Part shown: one piece after another, positions 7,421-63,685 of the stretch
Layout: the number at the start of each line of letters is the position of its first letter
Position numbering within the stretch: the stretch's first letter is position 1
Source: Mustelus asterias
Taxonomy: Eukaryota
Length of the DNA stretch: 64,000 bases
Assembly: GCF_964213995.1 (NCBI RefSeq)
Contig: NC_135826.1
Location: 1,736,001-1,800,000 of the forward strand
Direction of reading: 5' to 3'
The notes under the pieces: generated by a model
The model's database searches: none
Seen by the model: the letters and a program-made list of their open reading frames with translations, nothing else
What the model was told of the DNA's origin: nothing
Program-made: the position numbers and the translations under genes

Positions 7421-8831
7421 AGTGACTCAAGTCACTTTGGATAAGTCACTCAAGAAACTTAGTGACTCAAGTTCCATTTTTATTTATTTAATTATATTTT
7501 GTTCCTTTGTAGATGTGGGTGTCATTGGCTAGGCCAGAATTTATTGCCCATCCCTAAATTATATTCTGGAATTTTACAGATACTTCGGGGATTGGATTCC
7601 ATAGCCATCTTTTGATCTAAAACTGTAGCCACACTCCGATTAAATCTGGTTAGCGAGTAAACGATAATTGAACCAGGATGTATAGACATAATTTGGTCCT
7701 CATTTTAAAGTAATCATGCCATTGTTTAATATAATATGATTTTATATTTATTCTTTGATCTGAAATTATTGTGGAAAGGGAATATTGGATTTGGCAGTAC
7801 TGGGCTGGTTGAATGTGGGATTTGACTCACTGGTTTATTTTCTCAGAGAGGCAGAGAGTATAGACCTGGCAACAATGTGTATGGATATTCCATAAATGGC
7901 AGCACTGGTTTGGTATTCTTTCTGTGATTTTTGTAAGCATTAAATTTGATGTTTTGTGTTTTTCTTCTGGAAGTATTCAGCGTCCATTCTCTCTCTCTTG
8001 TGCTTCTCTCTCTCCGTCACCCCTCTTTTGTGGTTGCCTCTCTTTCTCCATTCATCCCTCTATTTATTTGTCTATTTTGTCTCTCTCATCTTTTGTTTTC
8101 TTTCTTTTGGCAGTTAAAATATTTTTTACATTTTCTAACAAGATCATTATTAGTAGCTTCCAAAATTCAGTCTTCCTTCTTTGTACCAAAGATTCTTGCC
8201 TCTTACCATTCATTGAAACGTAAAAGTATGCACAAGATATTTAATTAGCTAATAGGGAGGCATCTTTTTAATGATACAAGACTAGAATCTGCAGAACAAC
8301 AGCAGCCAGAAAAGGCATGATGCAAGGGACAGGCAACATTGCACCATAGTACTGATTTACAGACTGTAGGTTGTGTGCAACTTTCCACATAGCTTCACCT
8401 TTTATTGCAACGGAAATTGGGTTGCCTTGCCTGTGAGTAATGCAATGAAGCCTCCCTGTTGTTGGAACTTGGAGAAATCAAAGTAGTAAGTAAAATGAAT
8501 TATTAAGCGTATCTGCAACAGCAGTTTAACCAAGTAAATATGAAGCTTGCAGTAATTGCATATTATGTATGAAAATTTTCATATAAATAAATACATTAAG
8601 CTTGAATAGAATAAATACACCACCATTGTTCCAGTTAGTGTATTACAGCCAAATACTGGCAAAGAAAGGATACTGCGCCAAAGTTAGGAATTGTCTTGAT
8701 TTGAGCCTTGACAGTATGCCAATGAAGCCTGTTCAATCTTTGGTTATGAGGTTTCAAGTTAAATGTGTGTCTCCAACAACATTTGCCCCTTCCCCACACC
8801 AGTATTGATTTGTTCCTTTTATTTTGAGCAG

Positions 8832-10224
8832 ATACAGCCGAGGTTCAAGCAGTAACCCTAGCTGGGAGATGGAAGGATTTCCTGATCATTCTTCACGGAG
8901 GATGCTGGGAGTAGATCTGCCACTAGGTACAGCTGTCAAAAGGAGCCTGAAAAGTTTACACAGGATTGAACTAGCAGAGGCGCAGAGGACTGACCCTTCA
9001 TTGGAAGCTGTGCGATATCAGGCCATGCATCCCTGCAACAAAACAGATGGTGACATGGGGGGTACGTTCCTATACAAGGAAGGGATTTTGATTCGGCGAT
9101 GGAGTCCAAAGGAAGGCTTTTTCAAGGGGTCAGAAGTGTTTGAGGAGGTAGTAGTCCCTGAGCTATGTCGTGATGAAATATTGAAGGTTGCTCACAACAT
9201 TCCATCCTCTGAACACCAAGGCATTAAGCGTACAGGACGCCGTGTGCTGCAATATTTCTACTGGCCATCAGTTTTCACGGATGTAGCACATTATTGTAAA
9301 GCGTGTGAAAAATGTCATTATTCACATAAACTGGGAGATGCAGCCAATCTGGGGTTACGCCCCCTACCCACAATAAATATACCATTTAAAAGAGTAAGCA
9401 TCGATGTAGTGGGACCACTACCCTTCACAACCAACTCTGGGAAAAGGTACATCCTGATGATGGTGGATTGTGCATCCAGATATCCTGACGCGACAGCACT
9501 TGTCTCAGTGGAAGCAGATATAGTCGCCATGGCCCTGCTAGTGATGTTTACACGAGTCGGGTTTCCAGAAGAGATCCTGTCCAATCAGGGTGAAAATTTC
9601 ATGTCGCAGTTGGTTATGCAACTGAAAAGACAATGCCAAGACAAACAGCTCCGCAGCAACTCGTACTGTCCCCAAGTAAATGAGCTAGTGGAGAAGTTCA
9701 ATGGGACATTGAAACAAATACTGCGTACCTACGCTGAGCAGAACCCCTGTGACTGGGATGAAAAGCTGCCGTATCTTCTCTTTGCCTGTAGGGAGGTGCC
9801 GCAGCAATTAACTGGGTTCTCTCCCTTTGAGCTTCTATATGGACGCCGGGTATATGGGACATTGCTTCTGATCAAGGAGGCTTGGTTAGGGAAATGTTTT
9901 GGTGCAGATAAAAACATAGTGGAGCATGTGCTGAATGCACGGGATGCCTTAATTAGTTTAATTGAAAGTATTCGGGAAGATCAGGACCACTCTCTAAATA
10001 GCCGAAATCTCTGGTACTGTCATAATGCTGGGACCCGGTCATACGACATAGGCCAAAGGGTGCTGGTACTACAGCCTGTGAAACGACAAAAAGTGCAGCT
10101 TCATTGGGAAGGTCCATATACTGTAGTTGAGCCAGGGAAATACGTGTATTACACGGTTGAAATACCGTTTAATAAATTTAAAATTTACCATGTTAACATG
10201 ATGAAGCCTTACCTCGATTCCTAG
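8832..10224 (+). CDS. Gypsy/Gmr1-like integrase-derived terminal exon (HHCC zinc finger, rve core with D-N-35-E, GPY/F module); putative domesticated gene
   Basis: Uninterrupted ORF: AHNIPSSEHQG...CKACEKC, SIDVVGP (D 9403), EILSNQG (N 9583), LVEKFN (E 9691), TGFSPFELLYGR, WEGPY, HVNMMKPY then stop. Pyrimidine tract plus cag| at 8831. No RT follows. Confidence 0.8.
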
Positions 10225-15312: not shown

Positions 15313-15959
15313 TGTGTCAACATTTTCATTATAATTCACACAATTATGACAGAAACTATGATGTTGTCATATGGCACTATGCACAGGTATAAACATTTTG
15401 GCAGCTTAGTAGTTGGCTTCCCCTCATTGCCCACAGGGAATCAAAACCAAGTGCAATCTTCAGGGGAAGTAGGTTAGAGTTTGGTGAGAATTGGACTTTA
15501 ATGTTACAATGTCTCTATTTTTACCGCTTTAATCTGTCATTTTTTATATTGCTATTATAAATACCAATGTCCACATTTATGATGGGAAGTGTCTAAATAA
15601 ACTTGTCACCTATGCAGTATCTCTACTTAAGGTTCTAACTACTCTGACAAGTTTACACAATAAGAAGTCTCACAACACCAGGTTAAAGTCCAACAGGTTT
15701 ATTTGGTAGCAAATACCATAAGCTTTCGGAGCAATGCTCCTTCGTCAGATGGAGTGGTCTCTGTTCTCAAACAGGGCACAGACACAGAAATCAAATTACA
15801 GAATACTGATTAGAATGCAAATCTCTACAGCCAGCCAAGTCTTAAATGCACAGACAATGTGGGTGGAGGGAGCATTCAACACAGGTTAAAGAGATGTGTA
15901 TTGTCTCCAGACAGTACAGCTTGTGAAATTGTGCAAGTCCAGGAGTCAAGCTGTGGGGG

Positions 15960-16863
15960 TTACTGATAATGTGACATAAATCCAACATCCCGGTTTAGAC
16001 CGTCCTCATGTGTGCGGAACTTGGCTATCAGTTTCTGCTCAGTGACTCTGCGCTGTCGTGTGTCGTGAAGGCCGCCTTGGAGAACGCTTACCTGAAGATC
16101 CAAGGCTGAATGCCCGTGACTGCTGAAGTGCTCCCCCACAGGAAGAGAACACTCTTGCCTGGTGATTGTCGAGCGGTGTTCATTCATCCGCTGTCGTAGC
16201 GTCTGCATGGTTTCCCCAATGTACCATGCCTTGGGACATCCTTTCTTGCAGCGTATCAGGTAGACAACGTTGGCCGAGTTGCAAGAGTATGTACCGTGTA
16301 CCTGGTGGATGGTGTTCTCACGTGAGATGATGGCATCCGTGTTGATGATCCGGCACGTCTTGCAGAGGTTGCTGTGGCAGGGTTGTGTGGTGTCGTGGTC
16401 ACTGTTCTCCTGAAGGCTGGGTAGTTTGCTGCGGACAATGGTCTGTTTGAGGTTGCGTGGTTGTTTGAAGGCAAGAAGTGGGGGTGTGGGGATGGCCTTG
16501 GCGAGATGTTCGTCTTCATCAATGACATGTTGAAGGCTCCAGAGGAGATGCCGTAGCTTCTCCGCTCCGGGGAAGTACTGGACGACGAAGGGTACTCTGT
16601 CCACCGTGTCCCGTGTTTGTCTTCTGAGGAGGTCGGTGCGGTTTTTCGCTGTGGCACGTCGGAACTGTTGATCGATGAGTCGAGCGCCATATCCTGTTCT
16701 TATGAGGGCATCTTTCAGCGTCTGGAGGTGTCTGTTGCGATCCTCCTCATCCGAGCAGATCCTGTGTATTCGGAGGGCTTGTCCGTAGGGGATGGCTTCT
16801 TTTACGTGTTTAGGGTGGAAGCTGGAGAAGTGGAGCATCATGAGGTTATCCGTGGGCTTGCGG
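15960..16863 (-). CDS. Penelope-like RT thumb, linker and GIY-YIG endonuclease (5'-truncated)
   Basis: RKPTD..LHFSSFHP..IPYGQALRIHRICS; PCHSNLCKTC; NVVYLIRC...YIGET..LRQRMNEH; GLNRD. Confidence 0.88.
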
Positions 16864-17210
16864 ATCTTCAGGTAAGCGTTCTCCAAGGCGGCCTTCACGA
16901 CACACGACAGCGCAGAGTCACTGAGCAGAAACTGATAGCCAAGTTCCGCACACATGAGGACGGTCTAAACCGGGATGTTGGATTTATGTCACATTATCAG
17001 TAACCCCCACAGCTTGACTCCTGGACTTGCACAATTTCACAAGCTGTACTGTCTGGAGACAATACACATCTCTTTAACCTGTGTTGAATGCTCCCTCCAC
17101 CCACATTGTCTGTGCATTTAAGACTTGGCTGGCTGTAGAGATTTGCATTCTAATCAGTATTCTGTAATTTGATTTCTGTGTCTGTGCCCTGTTTGAGAAC
17201 AGAGACCACT

Positions 17211-17247
17211 CCATCTGACGAAGGAGCATTGCTCCGAAAGCTTATGG
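17211..17247 (+). ncRNA. Minimal type I hammerhead ribozyme motif (mirror copy on - strand at 15716-15752)
   Basis: ccat-CTGACGA-a-ggagc-att-gctcc-GAAA-gctt-atgg: stem I ccat/atgg, stem II ggagc/gctcc, palindromic stem III (AAGCTT). Confidence 0.75.
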
Positions 17248-20073: not shown

Positions 20074-20319
20074 GTAAAAACAGAAAAATGCTGGAAAATC
20101 TCAGGAGGTCTGACAGCGTCTGTGAAGAGAGAGTAGACCCAATGTTTCGAGTCTAGATGACCCTTCATCAGAGCTGGGACTGGGGCTCTGATGAAGGGTC
20201 ATCTAGACTCAAAATGTTGGATCTACTCTCCACAGATGCTGTCAGACCTGCTGAGATTTTCCAGCAGTTTTCGGTTTTTGTTTCAAATTCCAGGATCCGC
20301 AGTATTTTGCATTTATCTT
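20074..20319. mobile_element. Family B fold-back element with hammerhead-like motifs and 12 bp TSD
   Basis: About 100 bp inverted arms around 20180, then a tail; aatgttcatgaa at 20062-20073 and 20320-20331; CTGATGA-a-gggtc-atcta-gactc-GAAA on the - strand. Confidence 0.8.
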
Positions 20320-28489: not shown

Positions 28490-29745
28490 TAATCTAGTGG
28501 GGTTCTGCTGGGATCTGTGCCAGGACTCCAACTGTTCACATTATATATTAATGATTTGGAAAAGGGAACTGAATGTATAATCTCCAAATTTGCAGATGAT
28601 ACAAAGTTGGGTGGGAGGGTGAGCTGTGAGGAGGATGCAGAGATGCTTCAGCGTGATTTGGACTGGCTCAGTGTGTGGGCATCTGTATGACAGATGCAGA
28701 TAATGTGGATAAATGTGAGGTTATCCACTTTGGTAGCGATAATAGGAAGACAGATTATTAAGTGTTACTTAAATGATACTCAACCAGACCTTCGTGTCCT
28801 CATGCATCAGTCGCTGAAAGTAAGCACGCAGGTACAGCAGGCAGTAAAGAAGGCAAATGGTAGGTTGGCCTTCATAGTGACAGGATTTGAGTATAGTGAT
28901 AGGGATGTTTTGCTGCAATTGTACAGCGTGTTGGTGAGGCCACACCTGGAGTATTGTGTGCCGTTTTGGTGTCCTTATCTGAGGAAGGATATCCTTGCTA
29001 TAGAGCGAGTACAGCAAAGGTTTACCAGGCTGATTCCTGAGATGGCAGGTCTGTCAGATGAGGAGAGACTAAGTCGGTTAGGATTATATTCACTGGAGTT
29101 TAGAAGAGTGAGAGGAGATCTCATAGAAACTTATAAAATTCTAACAGGGTTAGACAGGGTAGATTCAGAAAGAATGTTCCCAATGGTGGGGGAGTCCAGA
29201 ACTAGGGGTCATAGTTTGAGGATAAGGGATAAACCTTTCAGGACTGAGGTGAGGAGAAATTTCTTCACCCAGAGAGTGACGAATGTGTGGAATTCGTTAC
29301 CACCGAATGTAGTTCGGACCGAAACATTGTGTGATTTCAAGAAGAAATTAGATATAACTCTCAGGGCTAAAGGGATATGGGGGGGGAAGGGGGATCAGGA
29401 TATTGAATTCGATGATTAGCCATGATCAAGATGAATGGAGTAAGAAGTTTAACAACACCAGGTTAAAGTCCAACAGGTTTATTTGGAAGCAAAAGCCACA
29501 CAAGCTTTCGGAGCTCTTAGCCCCTTCTTCAGGTGAATCTGGAACTCACCTGAAGAAGGGTCTAAGAGCTCCGAAAGCTTGTGTGGCTTTTGCTACCAAA
29601 TAAACCTGTTGGACTTTAACCTGGTGTTGTTAAACTTCTTGCTGTGTTTACCCCAGTCCAACGCCGGCATCTCCACATCAAGATGAATGGCGCAGCAGGC
29701 TTGAAGGGCTGAATGGCCTACTCCTGCTTCTAGTTTCTATGTTGG
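28490..29745 (+). mobile_element. CR1 LINE 3' fragment
   Basis: ISKFADDTKLG at about 28580, ORF 28694-29419 RT C-terminus, typical 3' UTR interrupted at 29439. Confidence 0.85.
29439..29676. mobile_element. Family A Penelope-type fold-back insertion (about 95 bp arms), 14 bp TSD, hammerhead motif at 29547-29583
   Basis: atcaagatgaatgg at 29425-29438 and 29677-29690; cac-CTGAAGA-a-gggtct-aag-agctcc-GAAA-gctt-gtg. Confidence 0.88.
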
Positions 29746-33430: not shown

Positions 33431-34171
33431 AAGCTACACAGTTACTTCAAACCACTCTAGAAAGGAATGGAACAGAACAGACAACCCAGGCACTGGAAAT
33501 GATAACAGCACACTCAACAATCCCATCCAAGCCCTATCCCCGTAAACCCACCTATTTACCCTACTAATCTCCCGAACATTAAGGAGCAATTTAGTATAGC
33601 CAATCAACCTAACCCACACATTTGTGGACATGAAGATGGCATGCCAGGAGCAAACCAGGCATACCTAAAAATTAGGAGTCAAGCTGGTGAAACTACAACA
33701 CAGGAGTATTTGTGTGCCAAACACCATAAGTAGCAAGCAATAAACACAGCTAAGCAATTCCACAATGAATGGTTCAGATCTAAACTCCTCAGTCATGCCA
33801 CATCCAGCCGTGAATGATGGTGGAAAATTAAACAATTCACTGGAGGAGGAGGCTCTACTAATATCCCCCTCAATGGTGGAGGAGCCCAGCACAAAGAGCC
33901 CACCACAAAAAAGATAAGGCTGATTACAAAGTGTGTGGGGGTGGGGGAGAGGGATGCTGATTACAATGCGTGTGGAGGAGGACTGATTACTGTGTGTGGG
34001 ACAGGGGTTGATTATAGTGTGTTGTGGGAGGGGGGGCTGATTACAGTGTGCATTATGGTTGGTGAGGGAGTTCACTGATCCTGCCACCCATACACTTGGA
34101 GACCAAAAGAGAAAATGCTGGAAAATCTCAACAGGTCTGGCAGCATCTGTAAGGAGAGAAAAGAGCTGATT

Positions 34172-34212
34172 GAGCTTTGACAAAGGGTCATCTGGACTCG
34201 AAACGTCAGCTC
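34172..34212 (+). ncRNA. Minimal type I hammerhead motif with U3-A8 variant core
   Basis: gagct-TTGACAA-a-gggtc-atctg-gactc-GAAAC-GTC-agctc. Confidence 0.7.
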
Positions 34213-34636
34213 TTTTCTCTCCTTACAGATGCTGCCAGACCTGCTGAGATTTTCCAGCATTTTCTCTTGGAAAACAGTTGATGTTTCGAGTCCAGCGGAC
34301 CCTTTGTCAAAGCTGTTTTTTTAACTGTAGGGTGAGGGAATGAAAGATGAGTCGTAGCCACAAAACCAAGGGGAAAGCCTGCGACAGATGAAGATATGGG
34401 GGAGGAGGGGTGGGGGAGAGAGGGGGGGGGGAGATGGGGGTGGGGGAGAGAGGGGGGGGAGATGGGTGTGGGGGAGAGAGGTAAAATTTAGAAAAGGGGG
34501 AAAGAGTGGGGGAAAAGAAAAATAAAGAAAAACAATAAAAGGTAGGGAACAGCTAAAAATTAAATAAAATGAAAACAAAGGGGTCAGGGTGGGGTAGAGC
34601 TAATTATCTGAAGTTCTTGAATTCGATGTGGAGACC

Positions 34637-34679
34637 AGAGCTTTGACAAAGGTTCATCTAGACTCGAAACGTCAGCTCT
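34637..34679 (+). ncRNA. Minimal type I hammerhead motif with U3-A8 variant core (second copy)
   Basis: agagct-TTGACAA-a-ggttc-atcta-gactc-GAAAC-GTC-agctct; one stem II mismatch. Confidence 0.6.
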
Positions 34680-35324
34680 CTTCTCTCCTTTCAGATGCTG
34701 CCAGACCTGCTGAGATTTTCCAGCATTTTCTTTTGGTTTCAGGTTCCAGCATCCGCAGTAATTTGTTTTTATCCATACATTTGGAATTTGGCTGATGAAT
34801 ATGTGAAATAACATGTTTACAAATCACAGATTTCAATTTCCCAAAGGACATGCCCCACCCTCTCTGTAATCCCCTCCAATCCTAGAGCCTTTAAATATGT
34901 TTTTGTTTATGATACCTGGCCTCTTGTGCACTTCCAATTATAATTGTGCCACCATTAGTGGCTGTGGCTTCAGCTGCCTAGTCCGTAAGCCTTGGAATCC
35001 CCTCACTGAACTCTACTTTCCTCCTTGAAGACAATCCCTTTGACCACGTTTTTGGGCCTCCGACCTGATATGCCCTTATGTGACTCAATGTCAGAGTTAT
35101 TGTATAATGTTCCTGTGAAGTACCTTGGGACGTTTCATGAAGCTATAGGTGCTTTATAACTATATGATGTATAACTATATATGATATAACTATATGATGT
35201 ATTGTTTATGGGTTGTATTGGTTACATGATAGATTGGTTCTAGGCTGTGTTGGTTATGTGATGTATTTATTACCGGGTGATCTCTGATCCTTGAACTTTA
35301 CTAAATGTTGCAATTCCACTCAGT

Positions 35325-35499
35325 GTCCCATTGGCTATTTGACGAGGATGTTATGCGCATGCGCAGTGTTCAAGGCCCCGACAGACCATGCAACCTCGCG
35401 CATGCGCCTCCCCGCACGCACAGTGCCTGACGCCGGTTTCCCCCTCCGAGCAGGCGGCGCCATTTTGTTCACTTCGTCCCTGGCGGTCGGATCGCGGTG
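35325..35499 (+). promoter_or_regulatory. CpG-rich promoter / 5' UTR of SAFB
   Basis: Abrupt CpG enrichment; inverted CCAAT (attgg) near 35330; NRF1 palindromes TGCGCATGCGCA 35354-35365 and GCGCATGCGC 35398-35407; YY1 motif CGCCATTTTG 35458-35467. Confidence 0.75.
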
Positions 35500-35652
35500 A
35501 TGGCGGCGGAGAGCGAGTCTGTGGCGCAGGCGGCGGCGGAAGAGTTGCGCAGCATCGCCGAGTTGCGGGTGGTGGATCTGAAAGCGCAGCTAAAAAAGAG
35601 AAACCTCGACACGAACGGCAACAAGAGCGTCCTGGTGGAGCGACTCCGCAAG
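35500..35652 (+). CDS. SAFB: SAFB coding exon 1 (SAP domain)
   Basis: MAAESE...[31 protein letters not shown]; donor gtgagg; ends phase 0. Confidence 0.93.
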
Positions 35653-39333: not shown

Positions 39334-39463
39334 TGATGTGGAGATGCCGGCGTTGGACTGGGGTAAGCACAGTAAGAGGTCTCTCAACAGGTTAAAGTCC
39401 AACAGGTTTATTTGGTAGCAAATACCATAAGCTTTCGGAGCACTGCCCCTTCGTCAGATGGAG
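39334..39463 (-). mobile_element. Family A Penelope pseudo-LTR solo fragment with hammerhead motif
   Basis: Tail plus arm; the - strand reads ccat-CTGACGA-a-ggggc-agt-gctcc-GAAA-gctt-atgg. Confidence 0.8.
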
Positions 39464-39917
39464 CTCTTATTAAATGGCAGAGCAGATTCATGGAGCTGTA
39501 TAGCCTACACCTGCTTCCATTTCTTTGCTACTTGTATAATTAAAATCTGAATAAATGGGTCCTCAAACTTTCAGTAGTTAATTTTCAGTGCTAGAGAGAT
39601 TGTACAAAAGTATTAACACATTTAACAGTATTAACACATGGTTAAGTCATTTATGAATTTCAATACCGGTGCGATGCCAGGTACAGACGCCATATGTTCC
39701 AACAATTTTGATCAAATGAAGCAGCATGTTCTTTCAATTGTTTGTAATAGGCACAGTACAGACTCGACCAGTTTACATTCACAAAACCCAAGACATACCG
39801 TCTATTGTTAGATGTGTGATTTCGCAATTAGGCAGCACTCCTGAGTAGTTAAAAGCTACGCCAACAATCAATTTGACAAACAAAAGGAATTTGTTCAAGC
39901 CTGATGTCTTCTAATTA

Positions 39918-40391
39918 TGATGTGGAGATGCCAGCGTTGGACTGGGGTAAACACAGTAAGAAGTTTAACAACACCAGGTTAAAGTCCAACAGGTTTATTT
40001 GGTAGCAAAAGCCACACAAGCTTTCGAGGCTCTAAGCCCCTTCTTCAGGTGAGTGGGAATTCTGTTCACAAACAGAATTTATAAAGACACAGACTCAATT
40101 TACATGAATAATGGTTGGAATGCGAATACTTACAACTAATCCAGTCTTTAAGAAACAAAACAATGGGACCTCCACTCCCATTGTTTTGTTTCTTAAAGAC
40201 TGGATTAGTTGTAAGTATTCGCATTCCAACCATTATTCATGTAAATTGAGTCTGTGTCTTTATAAATTCTGTTTGTGAACAGAATTCCCACTCACCTGAA
40301 GAAGGGGCTTAGAGCCTCGAAAGCTTGTGTGGCTTTTGCTACCAAATAAACCTGTTGGACTTTAACCTGGTGTTGTTAAACTTCTTACTGT
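39918..40391. mobile_element. Family A Penelope-type fold-back insertion (216 bp arms, 7 nt loop), 13 bp TSD
   Basis: Arms 39953-40168 and 40176-40391; tgtcttctaatta at 39905-39917 and 40389-40401; hammerhead motif 40293-40329. Confidence 0.9.
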
Positions 40392-62577: not shown

Positions 62578-63685
62578 GTAAGTATTCTTAATTGTTCTAC
62601 TCAACCAAGGCAATTGCACAGCTCAGTCAAGATTATTTTGTGTCTCCTTCCAAACTATTGCAATCCAGTACAATACATTAAATCATATCAAAGGATGGAG
62701 AACTTTTTGAAAAAATTCTGTTTTTGTGATGAGATATTTGGAGTGGAAGATCTTTGCCATCAAATATTCCCAGGAAAAGTATGATGAGACAATACAAAGC
62801 TTTCTCTCTCTTCTACCCAGCTCAGCCTTAAACACAACTCGTACTCCATTAGATACGTTATCTCATGATAGCTGACGATGATCCCCAAGTGAGATTGCCT
62901 TCCATCGTTCTTAAGATCAAATTTGAAATCAATTTTTCCTTTAGTTGCTCAGTTTATTTGATTCTACATTGAACTTATAATCTAAGATCATTAACAATTA
63001 GCTAATCATTCTCAGTGATTGTCAATATCATTAATTCAGGATGAATATCTGGTGAACTAACTAAGGTAGCACTGGACCTTTGGTGTCTGTGCTTTTGTAA
63101 AATTGCTTCCATGAACTTCAAAGTGTATATTCATGGTTAGAAGGCTCGGTCATATTGGAATTTGAGATTAGAAATTAAGTGAATTTCAGGTAATTTGTAA
63201 TCATGACCTGAAACTAGGATCAGATGTAGGCATTAATCATATTGATGCCTTTCTCATTACAGCTGGTAGTTATAAGTTGCATGGCTGTAGATTTATAATG
63301 GGAGCTAGACCATGCTTCCTTTATAGTATTTTCCATGCTAAATCAAGTTACTGCTCCAAACCATTGTCTGGCCTGGATCCTCAATAGGCCAGTTTCACTG
63401 ATGGGGGCAGCACAGCTGTTGAATTGTATGTTAGATTTTCACCGGTGGCAAAGTAAGGGCCCATTTTCTGTTCCAGGGCTGATTTGTGTATAGATAACCA
63501 CCTGATAGTGGTAGATGCAGGAGGTGCCATCGAAGTTACAAGATACTTGGATATGTACTTGGAGGTGCTGTAACCTACAGGGCTATGGACCAAGAGCTGG
63601 CAGTTGGGATTAGGCTGGAAAACTTTCTTTCTATCGGCATGGACACAATATGCCTTTTCTATCTAAGAAGCTGGTCGTAAAGCCG

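Follow-up and report, generated by a model that had tools for sequence, protein, structure and literature searches.

Minimal hammerhead ribozymes of Penelope-like elements (PLEs) were reported by Cervera and De la Pena (2014, PMC4209133), with about 1,300 U3-A8 copies in Schistosoma, pairs on opposite strands and low activity as dimers. The Cercyon PLEs of Schistosoma mansoni described in that paper resemble the Mustelus asterias element reported here. Both carry the hammerhead in the pLTR, without helix III, with a palindromic 15.2/16.2 and an extra base before stem II, and both share a short helix I, a U3-A8 core, mostly single truncated copies and opposite-strand pairs 100-700 bp apart. In contrast to Cercyon, the M. 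asterias element is a vertebrate Neptune-type element whose stem II has 5 bp and which is present in at least 6,623 exact copies, compared with some 1,300 in Schistosoma; its genome also harbours a C3-G8 sister subfamily, by which the swap can be dated and polarised. In Poseidon of Anolis carolinensis, reverse transcription (RT) starts at two adjacent internal sites and both strands are extended (Frangieh et al. 2024, PMC11167929). Uncut RNA is reported as its main substrate; its hammerhead needs protein to cut, and insertion does not depend on cleavage. Poseidon and the M. asterias element would share a hammerhead in the 5' part of the RNA, a pair of RT start sites that makes a 30-40 nt tail optional, and an uncut template. 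Poseidon has a C3-G8 core and an ORF that begins inside the hammerhead, whereas the M. asterias ORF starts at an ATG about 170 nt further downstream and encodes a protein with a Neptune Zn-finger linker. The Neptune clade of EN+ PLEs is described with an RT, a CX2-5CxxC linker, a C-terminal GIY-YIG, partial tandems, an inverted 5'-truncated copy and a 30-40 bp tail (Craig et al. 2021, PMC8557442), and the same text calls the hammerhead's role in PLEs unclear and allows that hammerheads may be parasitic. Natural U3-A8 core variants were reported by Perreault et al. (2011, PMC3088659), who cite in vitro activity from earlier work. They show the same covariation as found here, but the passages on them in that report give scattered examples and no transposon subfamily census.

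The window, the 64,000-nucleotide stretch of M. asterias DNA that we analysed, contains UUGACAA cores at 34177-34183 (+), 34643-34649 (+) and 34310-34304 (-), named copies 1, 2 and 3. Downstream of each core an unpaired A, stem II and GAAAC are found. All three keep a Watson-Crick 3-8 pair in the (C/U)UGAN(G/A)A...GAAA core, as U3-A8. G10.1-C11.1 closes stem II, preceded by an unpaired base, in copies 1 and 3 as in the family; copy 2 has the same arrangement with one internal mismatch. The cleavage triplet is GUC in both + copies and AUC in the - copy. Copy 1 is a fully intact U3-A8 minimal hammerhead. In copy 2, stem II contains a U-C mismatch (34653/34663); like copy 1, this copy keeps the 15.1-16.1 palindrome (ACGU) and the NUH triplet, here GUC. 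In copy 3 the palindrome is replaced by ACAU and stem I has one mismatch. The two + copies are 95% alike, and their C17 residues (34207 and 34673) lie 1293 and 827 nt upstream of an ATG at 35500. The 30-mer 34176-34205 has 2,892 exact genome matches against 0 for its reversed control, so the motifs are not a chance occurrence. No hammerhead, canonical or not, was matched in the window by Rfam at gathering thresholds. We assign the motifs, from their sequence, as minimal type I hammerheads of a PLE's pLTR. The first-pass annotation had already described them, with stem II, GAAAC and GUC (AUC on the - strand), had put the two + copies about 465 nt apart (466 nt from start to start) with predicted cut positions 0.8-1.3 kb before the ATG of SAFB, and had placed an element with a canonical CUGAUGA near 20074 (cores at 20171 (-) and 20187 (+)); these sequences and positions are borne out. 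Its stem I of 5-9 bp needs correction: the pairing is present, but the element's own stem I is only 4 bp (AGCU/AGCU), and further pairs are junction bases.

The block 34101-34772 consists of element pieces only, their tails facing outward. On either side of it stands one copy of a 13-bp target-site duplication (34088-34100 and 34773-34785, both +); the two copies differ by one mismatch. For chance level, among 3000 random pairs of 36-nt pieces 6 yield a 12-mer with at most one mismatch. At the left end lies a pLTR tail piece without catalytic core (34099-34170, -, element about +33 to +104, where +1 is the first base of stem I). It is antisense to the tail of copy 1, and 63 nt of it are 98% complementary to 34206-34268. 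Copy 1, a hammerhead with a short tail, follows at 34173-34268 (+, element +1 to +96), with stem II at 34185-34199 and ACGU at 34203-34206. Copy 3 (34270-34314, -, +1 to +45) is in the element's sense orientation and antisense to copies 1 and 2 (89% and 82% complementary). The order on the - strand is ORF end, 3' UTR, copy 3. By translation, 34636-34604 encodes the last 10 codons and stop of a Penelope-like ORF (the end of its GIY-YIG domain), the same C-terminus that closes the 732-codon RT/GIY-YIG frame of locus L098. In the pLTR 3' UTR part (34320-34603, -) the TATA-bearing 30 nt of other copies is replaced by a short A-rich junction. Copy 2, an inverted hammerhead with a long tail (34639-34777, +, +1 to +139), sits at the 5' truncation point. 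The whole block reads as one 5'-truncated, inverted Penelope-like insertion, and the three motifs are therefore not three independent observations. Very probably, they are the hammerhead ends of this one insertion, derived from a master copy that was U3-A8, and are likely inert passengers locally. A non-LTR retrozyme (head-to-tail units of 150-1000 nt, each with a canonical hammerhead) does not fit the locus; antisense element DNA separates the + copies and there is no repeated unit. Contigs from four sequencing runs support the assembly junctions and do not bear on expression. The family also occurs in four sequencing runs of other organisms compared with copy 2, with 34639 a frequent start of its copies; the table of differences omits even copy 2's own stem II change and so is not informative on U3-A8 in those species. 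For comparison, an inverted hammerhead pair of the sister C3-G8 subfamily, both decayed, is found at 20077-20317. To be noted, +1 is preceded in both + copies by a G that does not belong to the element (34172, 34638); a cap-derived base is possible, yet by eye C is commoner there elsewhere.

A 42-residue piece of a related copy matched proteins in which GIY-YIG and PF26215 domains are present; PF01541 or PF26215 is found in related proteins, and one shark protein has the same C-terminal end. The frame of L098 contains an RT, a C-x4-C-x2-C linker and a GIY-YIG domain (Pfam RVT_1 E 6e-07, just above the cut-off; GIY-YIG E 0.006, under the cut-off). The element is, by its sequence, an EN+ PLE with a Neptune-type linker, a linker that Nematis shares. 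RT, linker, GIY-YIG, tandems, inverted copy and tail are common to this element and the Neptune clade (PMC8557442). The hammerhead is found downstream of the ORF in 41 of 50 loci and upstream in 9 of 30 N-terminal loci, and these hammerheads on both sides match a pLTR partial tandem with the hammerhead inside. In 8 of the 30 N-terminal loci a subfamily-A hammerhead stands about 170 nt before an in-frame ATG (U3 and A8 in seven, decay at G5 in the eighth). Inverted family matches occur in 9 of the 50 ORF loci. The inverted 5'-truncated copy with its optional 30-40 bp tail is present at the window locus, and the 3'-end clusters are about 37 nt apart. Seven loci picked as possible pLTR pairs contained no Penelope ORF. 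At three other loci the same short spacer lies between an inverted and a forward hammerhead, which hints at a compound non-autonomous sub-master. At eight loci an open frame of 59 codons leads from hammerhead position 3 to a stop overlapping the ORF start; in C3-G8 copies with U7 it contains an ATG and may be an upstream ORF. Both core changes are synonymous within this frame, a point set aside because the frame has no ATG here and ends at the ORF start.

The first-pass annotation had proposed that a subfamily fixed the double change, and that a count of C3G8, U3A8 and mismatched cores across the genome would distinguish this from plain decay, in which positions 3 and 8 vary independently. Exact matches with the same stem II, all lower bounds, number 6,623 for U3A8, 3,164 for C3G8, 1,195 for C3A8 and 257 for U3G8, and 0 for controls. 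The two positions covary with an odds ratio of 68, and independent decay would give 97 U3A8 copies instead of 6,623. Among 96 distinct copies that were not picked by their core and were typed by tail letters, 73 belong to subfamily A, 19 to subfamily B and four to neither. The double change is indeed fixed in subfamily A (71 of 73 are U3A8), while subfamily B contains 12 C3G8, five C3A8, one U3A8 and one other. An ORF tree with 37 U3 rows against 4 C3 rows, the only ones on the C3G8 side, places one change with support 100; 9 of 50 loci, in which a long match or a core close by is missing, are left out of it. With 104 rows, a tree from the tail alone takes five changes for U3A8, but this tree lacks resolution, and a single change is all that its supported branches require. 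The 3-8 linkage is best described as subfamily structure, one event in a transposon master lineage, because it has one origin on the ORF tree. The C3A8 copies are mostly a product of CpG decay, with C7 seen by eye in 96 of the first 100 listed. The subfamily-A loop is found, also by eye, in 14 of 100 C3A8 and 30 of 100 U3G8 copies, numbers that fit single-site decay, and neither mismatch class is an amplified subfamily. No second U3-A8 origin was seen in the genome, with U3 in 0 of the first 100 of 101,028 second-family matches. Of 314 U3A8 matches with another base at 10.4, the first 100 look by eye like point mutants of the same subfamily. Along the contig, U3A8 is much denser near the end: its first 100 matches fall within 22 Mb, and 100 C3G8 matches span 136 Mb.

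Selection has to be considered separately for inserted copies and for the master lineage. In subfamily A the non-CpG change is 22/723 in the core (3.0%), 23/653 in stem II (3.5%) and 147/4113 in the tail (3.6%; Fisher p 0.67), CpG sites change by 15-20%, and 23 of 73 copies are intact. These rates show inserted copies decaying in an apparently neutral manner. Between the subfamilies (20 A rows, 4 B rows) the differing positions are 58/100 upstream, 12/23 in the spacer, 0/7 in the TATA box, 7/39 in the hammerhead, 8/61 in the tail and 86/600 in the ORF. Comparison of 131 A with 47 B copies places the hammerhead differences at positions 3 and 8, at two loop-2 bases, at 17 (U to C) and at 1.1 (G to A), and all fit the fold. 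The other 11 core bases and the full set of 10 stem II bases are the same in both subfamilies, despite a divergence of 14% in the ORF and 58% upstream. The C3-G8 pair is reported to form only in the active hammerhead conformation (PMC3884650). That the fold is kept through the swap while upstream DNA diverged supports selection on the master element's ribozyme, not on inserted copies. The hammerhead is conserved no more than the adjacent tail, and part of the constraint could therefore come from protein binding or RT initiation. Position 8 is changed in 1 of 73 A copies against 7 of 19 B copies, and is steadier in A because the swap removes a CpG. The earlier claim that the double change implies selection on cleavage can thus be retained for the master element, as a single event, but not for the copies (core 3.0% versus tail 3.6%).

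Insertion ends were mapped on the first 100 listed of 11,554 exact tail matches, which come from one contig end and are not a random sample. At the 5' side, 61 of the 100 end between -4 and +6, with 33 at +1 and 10 at +3; only one begins at the cut site, and 18 extend past -20. At the 3' side, 40 end at +99 to +105 and 37 at +135 to +140. Subfamily-B copies picked by their core behave alike, 24 of 30 beginning at -3 to +5. Of 62 copies with native upstream DNA, 39 have a TATA-like word at exactly -30, and the two subfamilies do not differ in this word. The insertion ends and the TATA box together suggest that the transposon mRNA probably begins with the ribozyme and that uncut RNA probably serves as the template. 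The element mRNA would start at +1, 30 nt after the TATA box. Reverse transcription of the uncut RNA would start internally at about +100 or +137 and run to +1, producing many hammerhead-plus-tail pieces of 100-140 nt, and extension of both ends of a double-strand break would give tails-out inverted insertions like 34101-34772. The ribozyme likely acts weakly, as a protein-assisted dimer and only on the active element's own tandem transcripts, on which selection would have kept the 3-8 pair. The swap probably began with C3U, which gives a U-G wobble, and was completed when the CpG at 7-8 was lost.

Two other readings of these data deserve weight. The sharp +1 boundary may mark a splice acceptor or palindrome-driven joining and not a transcription start, which we think rather unlikely. 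A pyrimidine tract with an AG ending at +2 is found in both subfamilies, the 10 copies beginning at +3 would fit an acceptor there, and a Drosophila Penelope intron is reported to end at helix I (PMC4209133). Joining could use AGCT, which is palindromic, and many junctions are fold-backs. Against this reading, the peak is at +1, even in copies joined to unrelated DNA; no shared upstream exon is seen by eye in the listed junctions; and the TATA word keeps its place at -30 although 12 of 23 spacer positions differ. The TATA-less internal promoter described for Drosophila Penelope (PMC2377424) counts against a start site at +1. The U3-A8 core may also be a neutral founder effect, in which a dispensable or dead hammerhead mutated twice in the copy that became master. 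The swap is one event on the ORF tree, G8A is a CpG hot spot (1,195 C3A8 copies, with C7 as given above), cleavage is dispensable for insertion in vitro (PMC11167929), Naiad elements are reported to spread without canonical hammerheads (PMC8557442), and the cut site is the start of a single copy in 100. A founder effect is nevertheless unlikely in our judgement, more so than splicing or joining: the 11 core and 10 stem II bases remained unchanged while ORF and upstream DNA diverged, the partner change exactly restores a pair found only in the active fold, neither mismatch class gave rise to an amplified subfamily, and the same swap arose separately in Schistosoma.

A local function of the three motifs has also to be weighed. 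Their neighbour is the first coding exon of a SAFB-like gene (35500-35652, +; SAP domain, E 1.4e-11), which is probably SAFB, as judged from the SAP match and the SAFB N-terminus. Before its ATG, 35355-35470 contains two GCGCATGCGC words and one GCCATTTT word, presumably NRF1 and YY1 sites. According to the first-pass annotation, the two + copies could form a dimer that cuts read-through RNA before SAFB; if domesticated in this role, they would insulate its promoter. Copy 1 is indeed fully intact, the two same-strand copies 466 nt apart both have ACGU, and minimal hammerheads are reported to work as dimers (PMC4209133). However, copy 2 has its stem II mismatch, two of the three copies show family-like decay, which speaks against a domesticated host hammerhead, the element's TATA box is absent from all three, and no promoter for such an RNA was found. 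Copy 1 lies between antisense partners of 63 nt and 45 nt; in the predicted fold of the 34150-34700 RNA it pairs lengthwise with copy 3 antisense, and its stem II has a probability below 0.003. In the folding model the dimer is less favourable by about 34 kcal/mol even when the antisense pieces are blocked, and two isolated motifs also come out 8-11 kcal/mol worse as a dimer, so folding energies do not discriminate. Among 55 long upstream frames, Pfam finds only transposon domains, in 28 (short exons would be missed). The window has nine matches of the U3-A8/C3-G8 family, a density at which a match less than 1.3 kb from a promoter is nothing unusual, and the second family has 101,028 exact genome matches. 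The SAFB dimer is thus very improbable, and the three motifs are likely not a regulator of the SAFB-like gene.

Other elements are present in the window. The second Penelope-like family is represented by seven minimal hammerheads with canonical cores at 15748-17215, 29532-29550 and 39457-40296, and a GIY-YIG ORF of this family (16964-15960, -) lies between an inverted hammerhead pair. An H/ACA snoRNA of the SNORA42/SNORA80 family, probably intronic, is matched by Rfam at 63279-63417. An LTR-retrotransposon integrase frame of 471 codons is found at 8809-10224.

U3-A8 in Penelope hammerheads is already published, for Schistosoma (PMC4209133); newer is the start-site signal. The literature searched, which took in few subscription papers and included PMC6765202, PMC6155905, PMC7151607 and bioRxiv 2026.07.22.740005, held neither a shark or vertebrate U3-A8 case nor a PLE transcript start at stem I; the supplements of PMC4209133, outside this search, list vertebrate motifs and could include one. 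Nothing special about SAFB follows from the locus. Searches with the canonical core miss the larger, U3-A8 subfamily. If the mRNA starts at the ribozyme, the hammerhead would be the first 39 nt of a capped message, and cleavage would decap it and sever the RT start site at the 3' repeat. Tentatively, and with some doubt, such cleavage may be a brake or a switch to circular RNA, and the U3-A8, GUC lineage may have retuned this switch, lost the mutable core CpG and out-amplified its C3-G8, GUU sister. The two subfamilies provide a clean natural pair, with a compensatory change in a base pair of the catalytic fold only and a change in the cleavage triplet. With an RNA that would start at the ribozyme's first base, insertions that would come from uncut RNA, and this sister pair, the role of the PLE hammerhead becomes directly testable.
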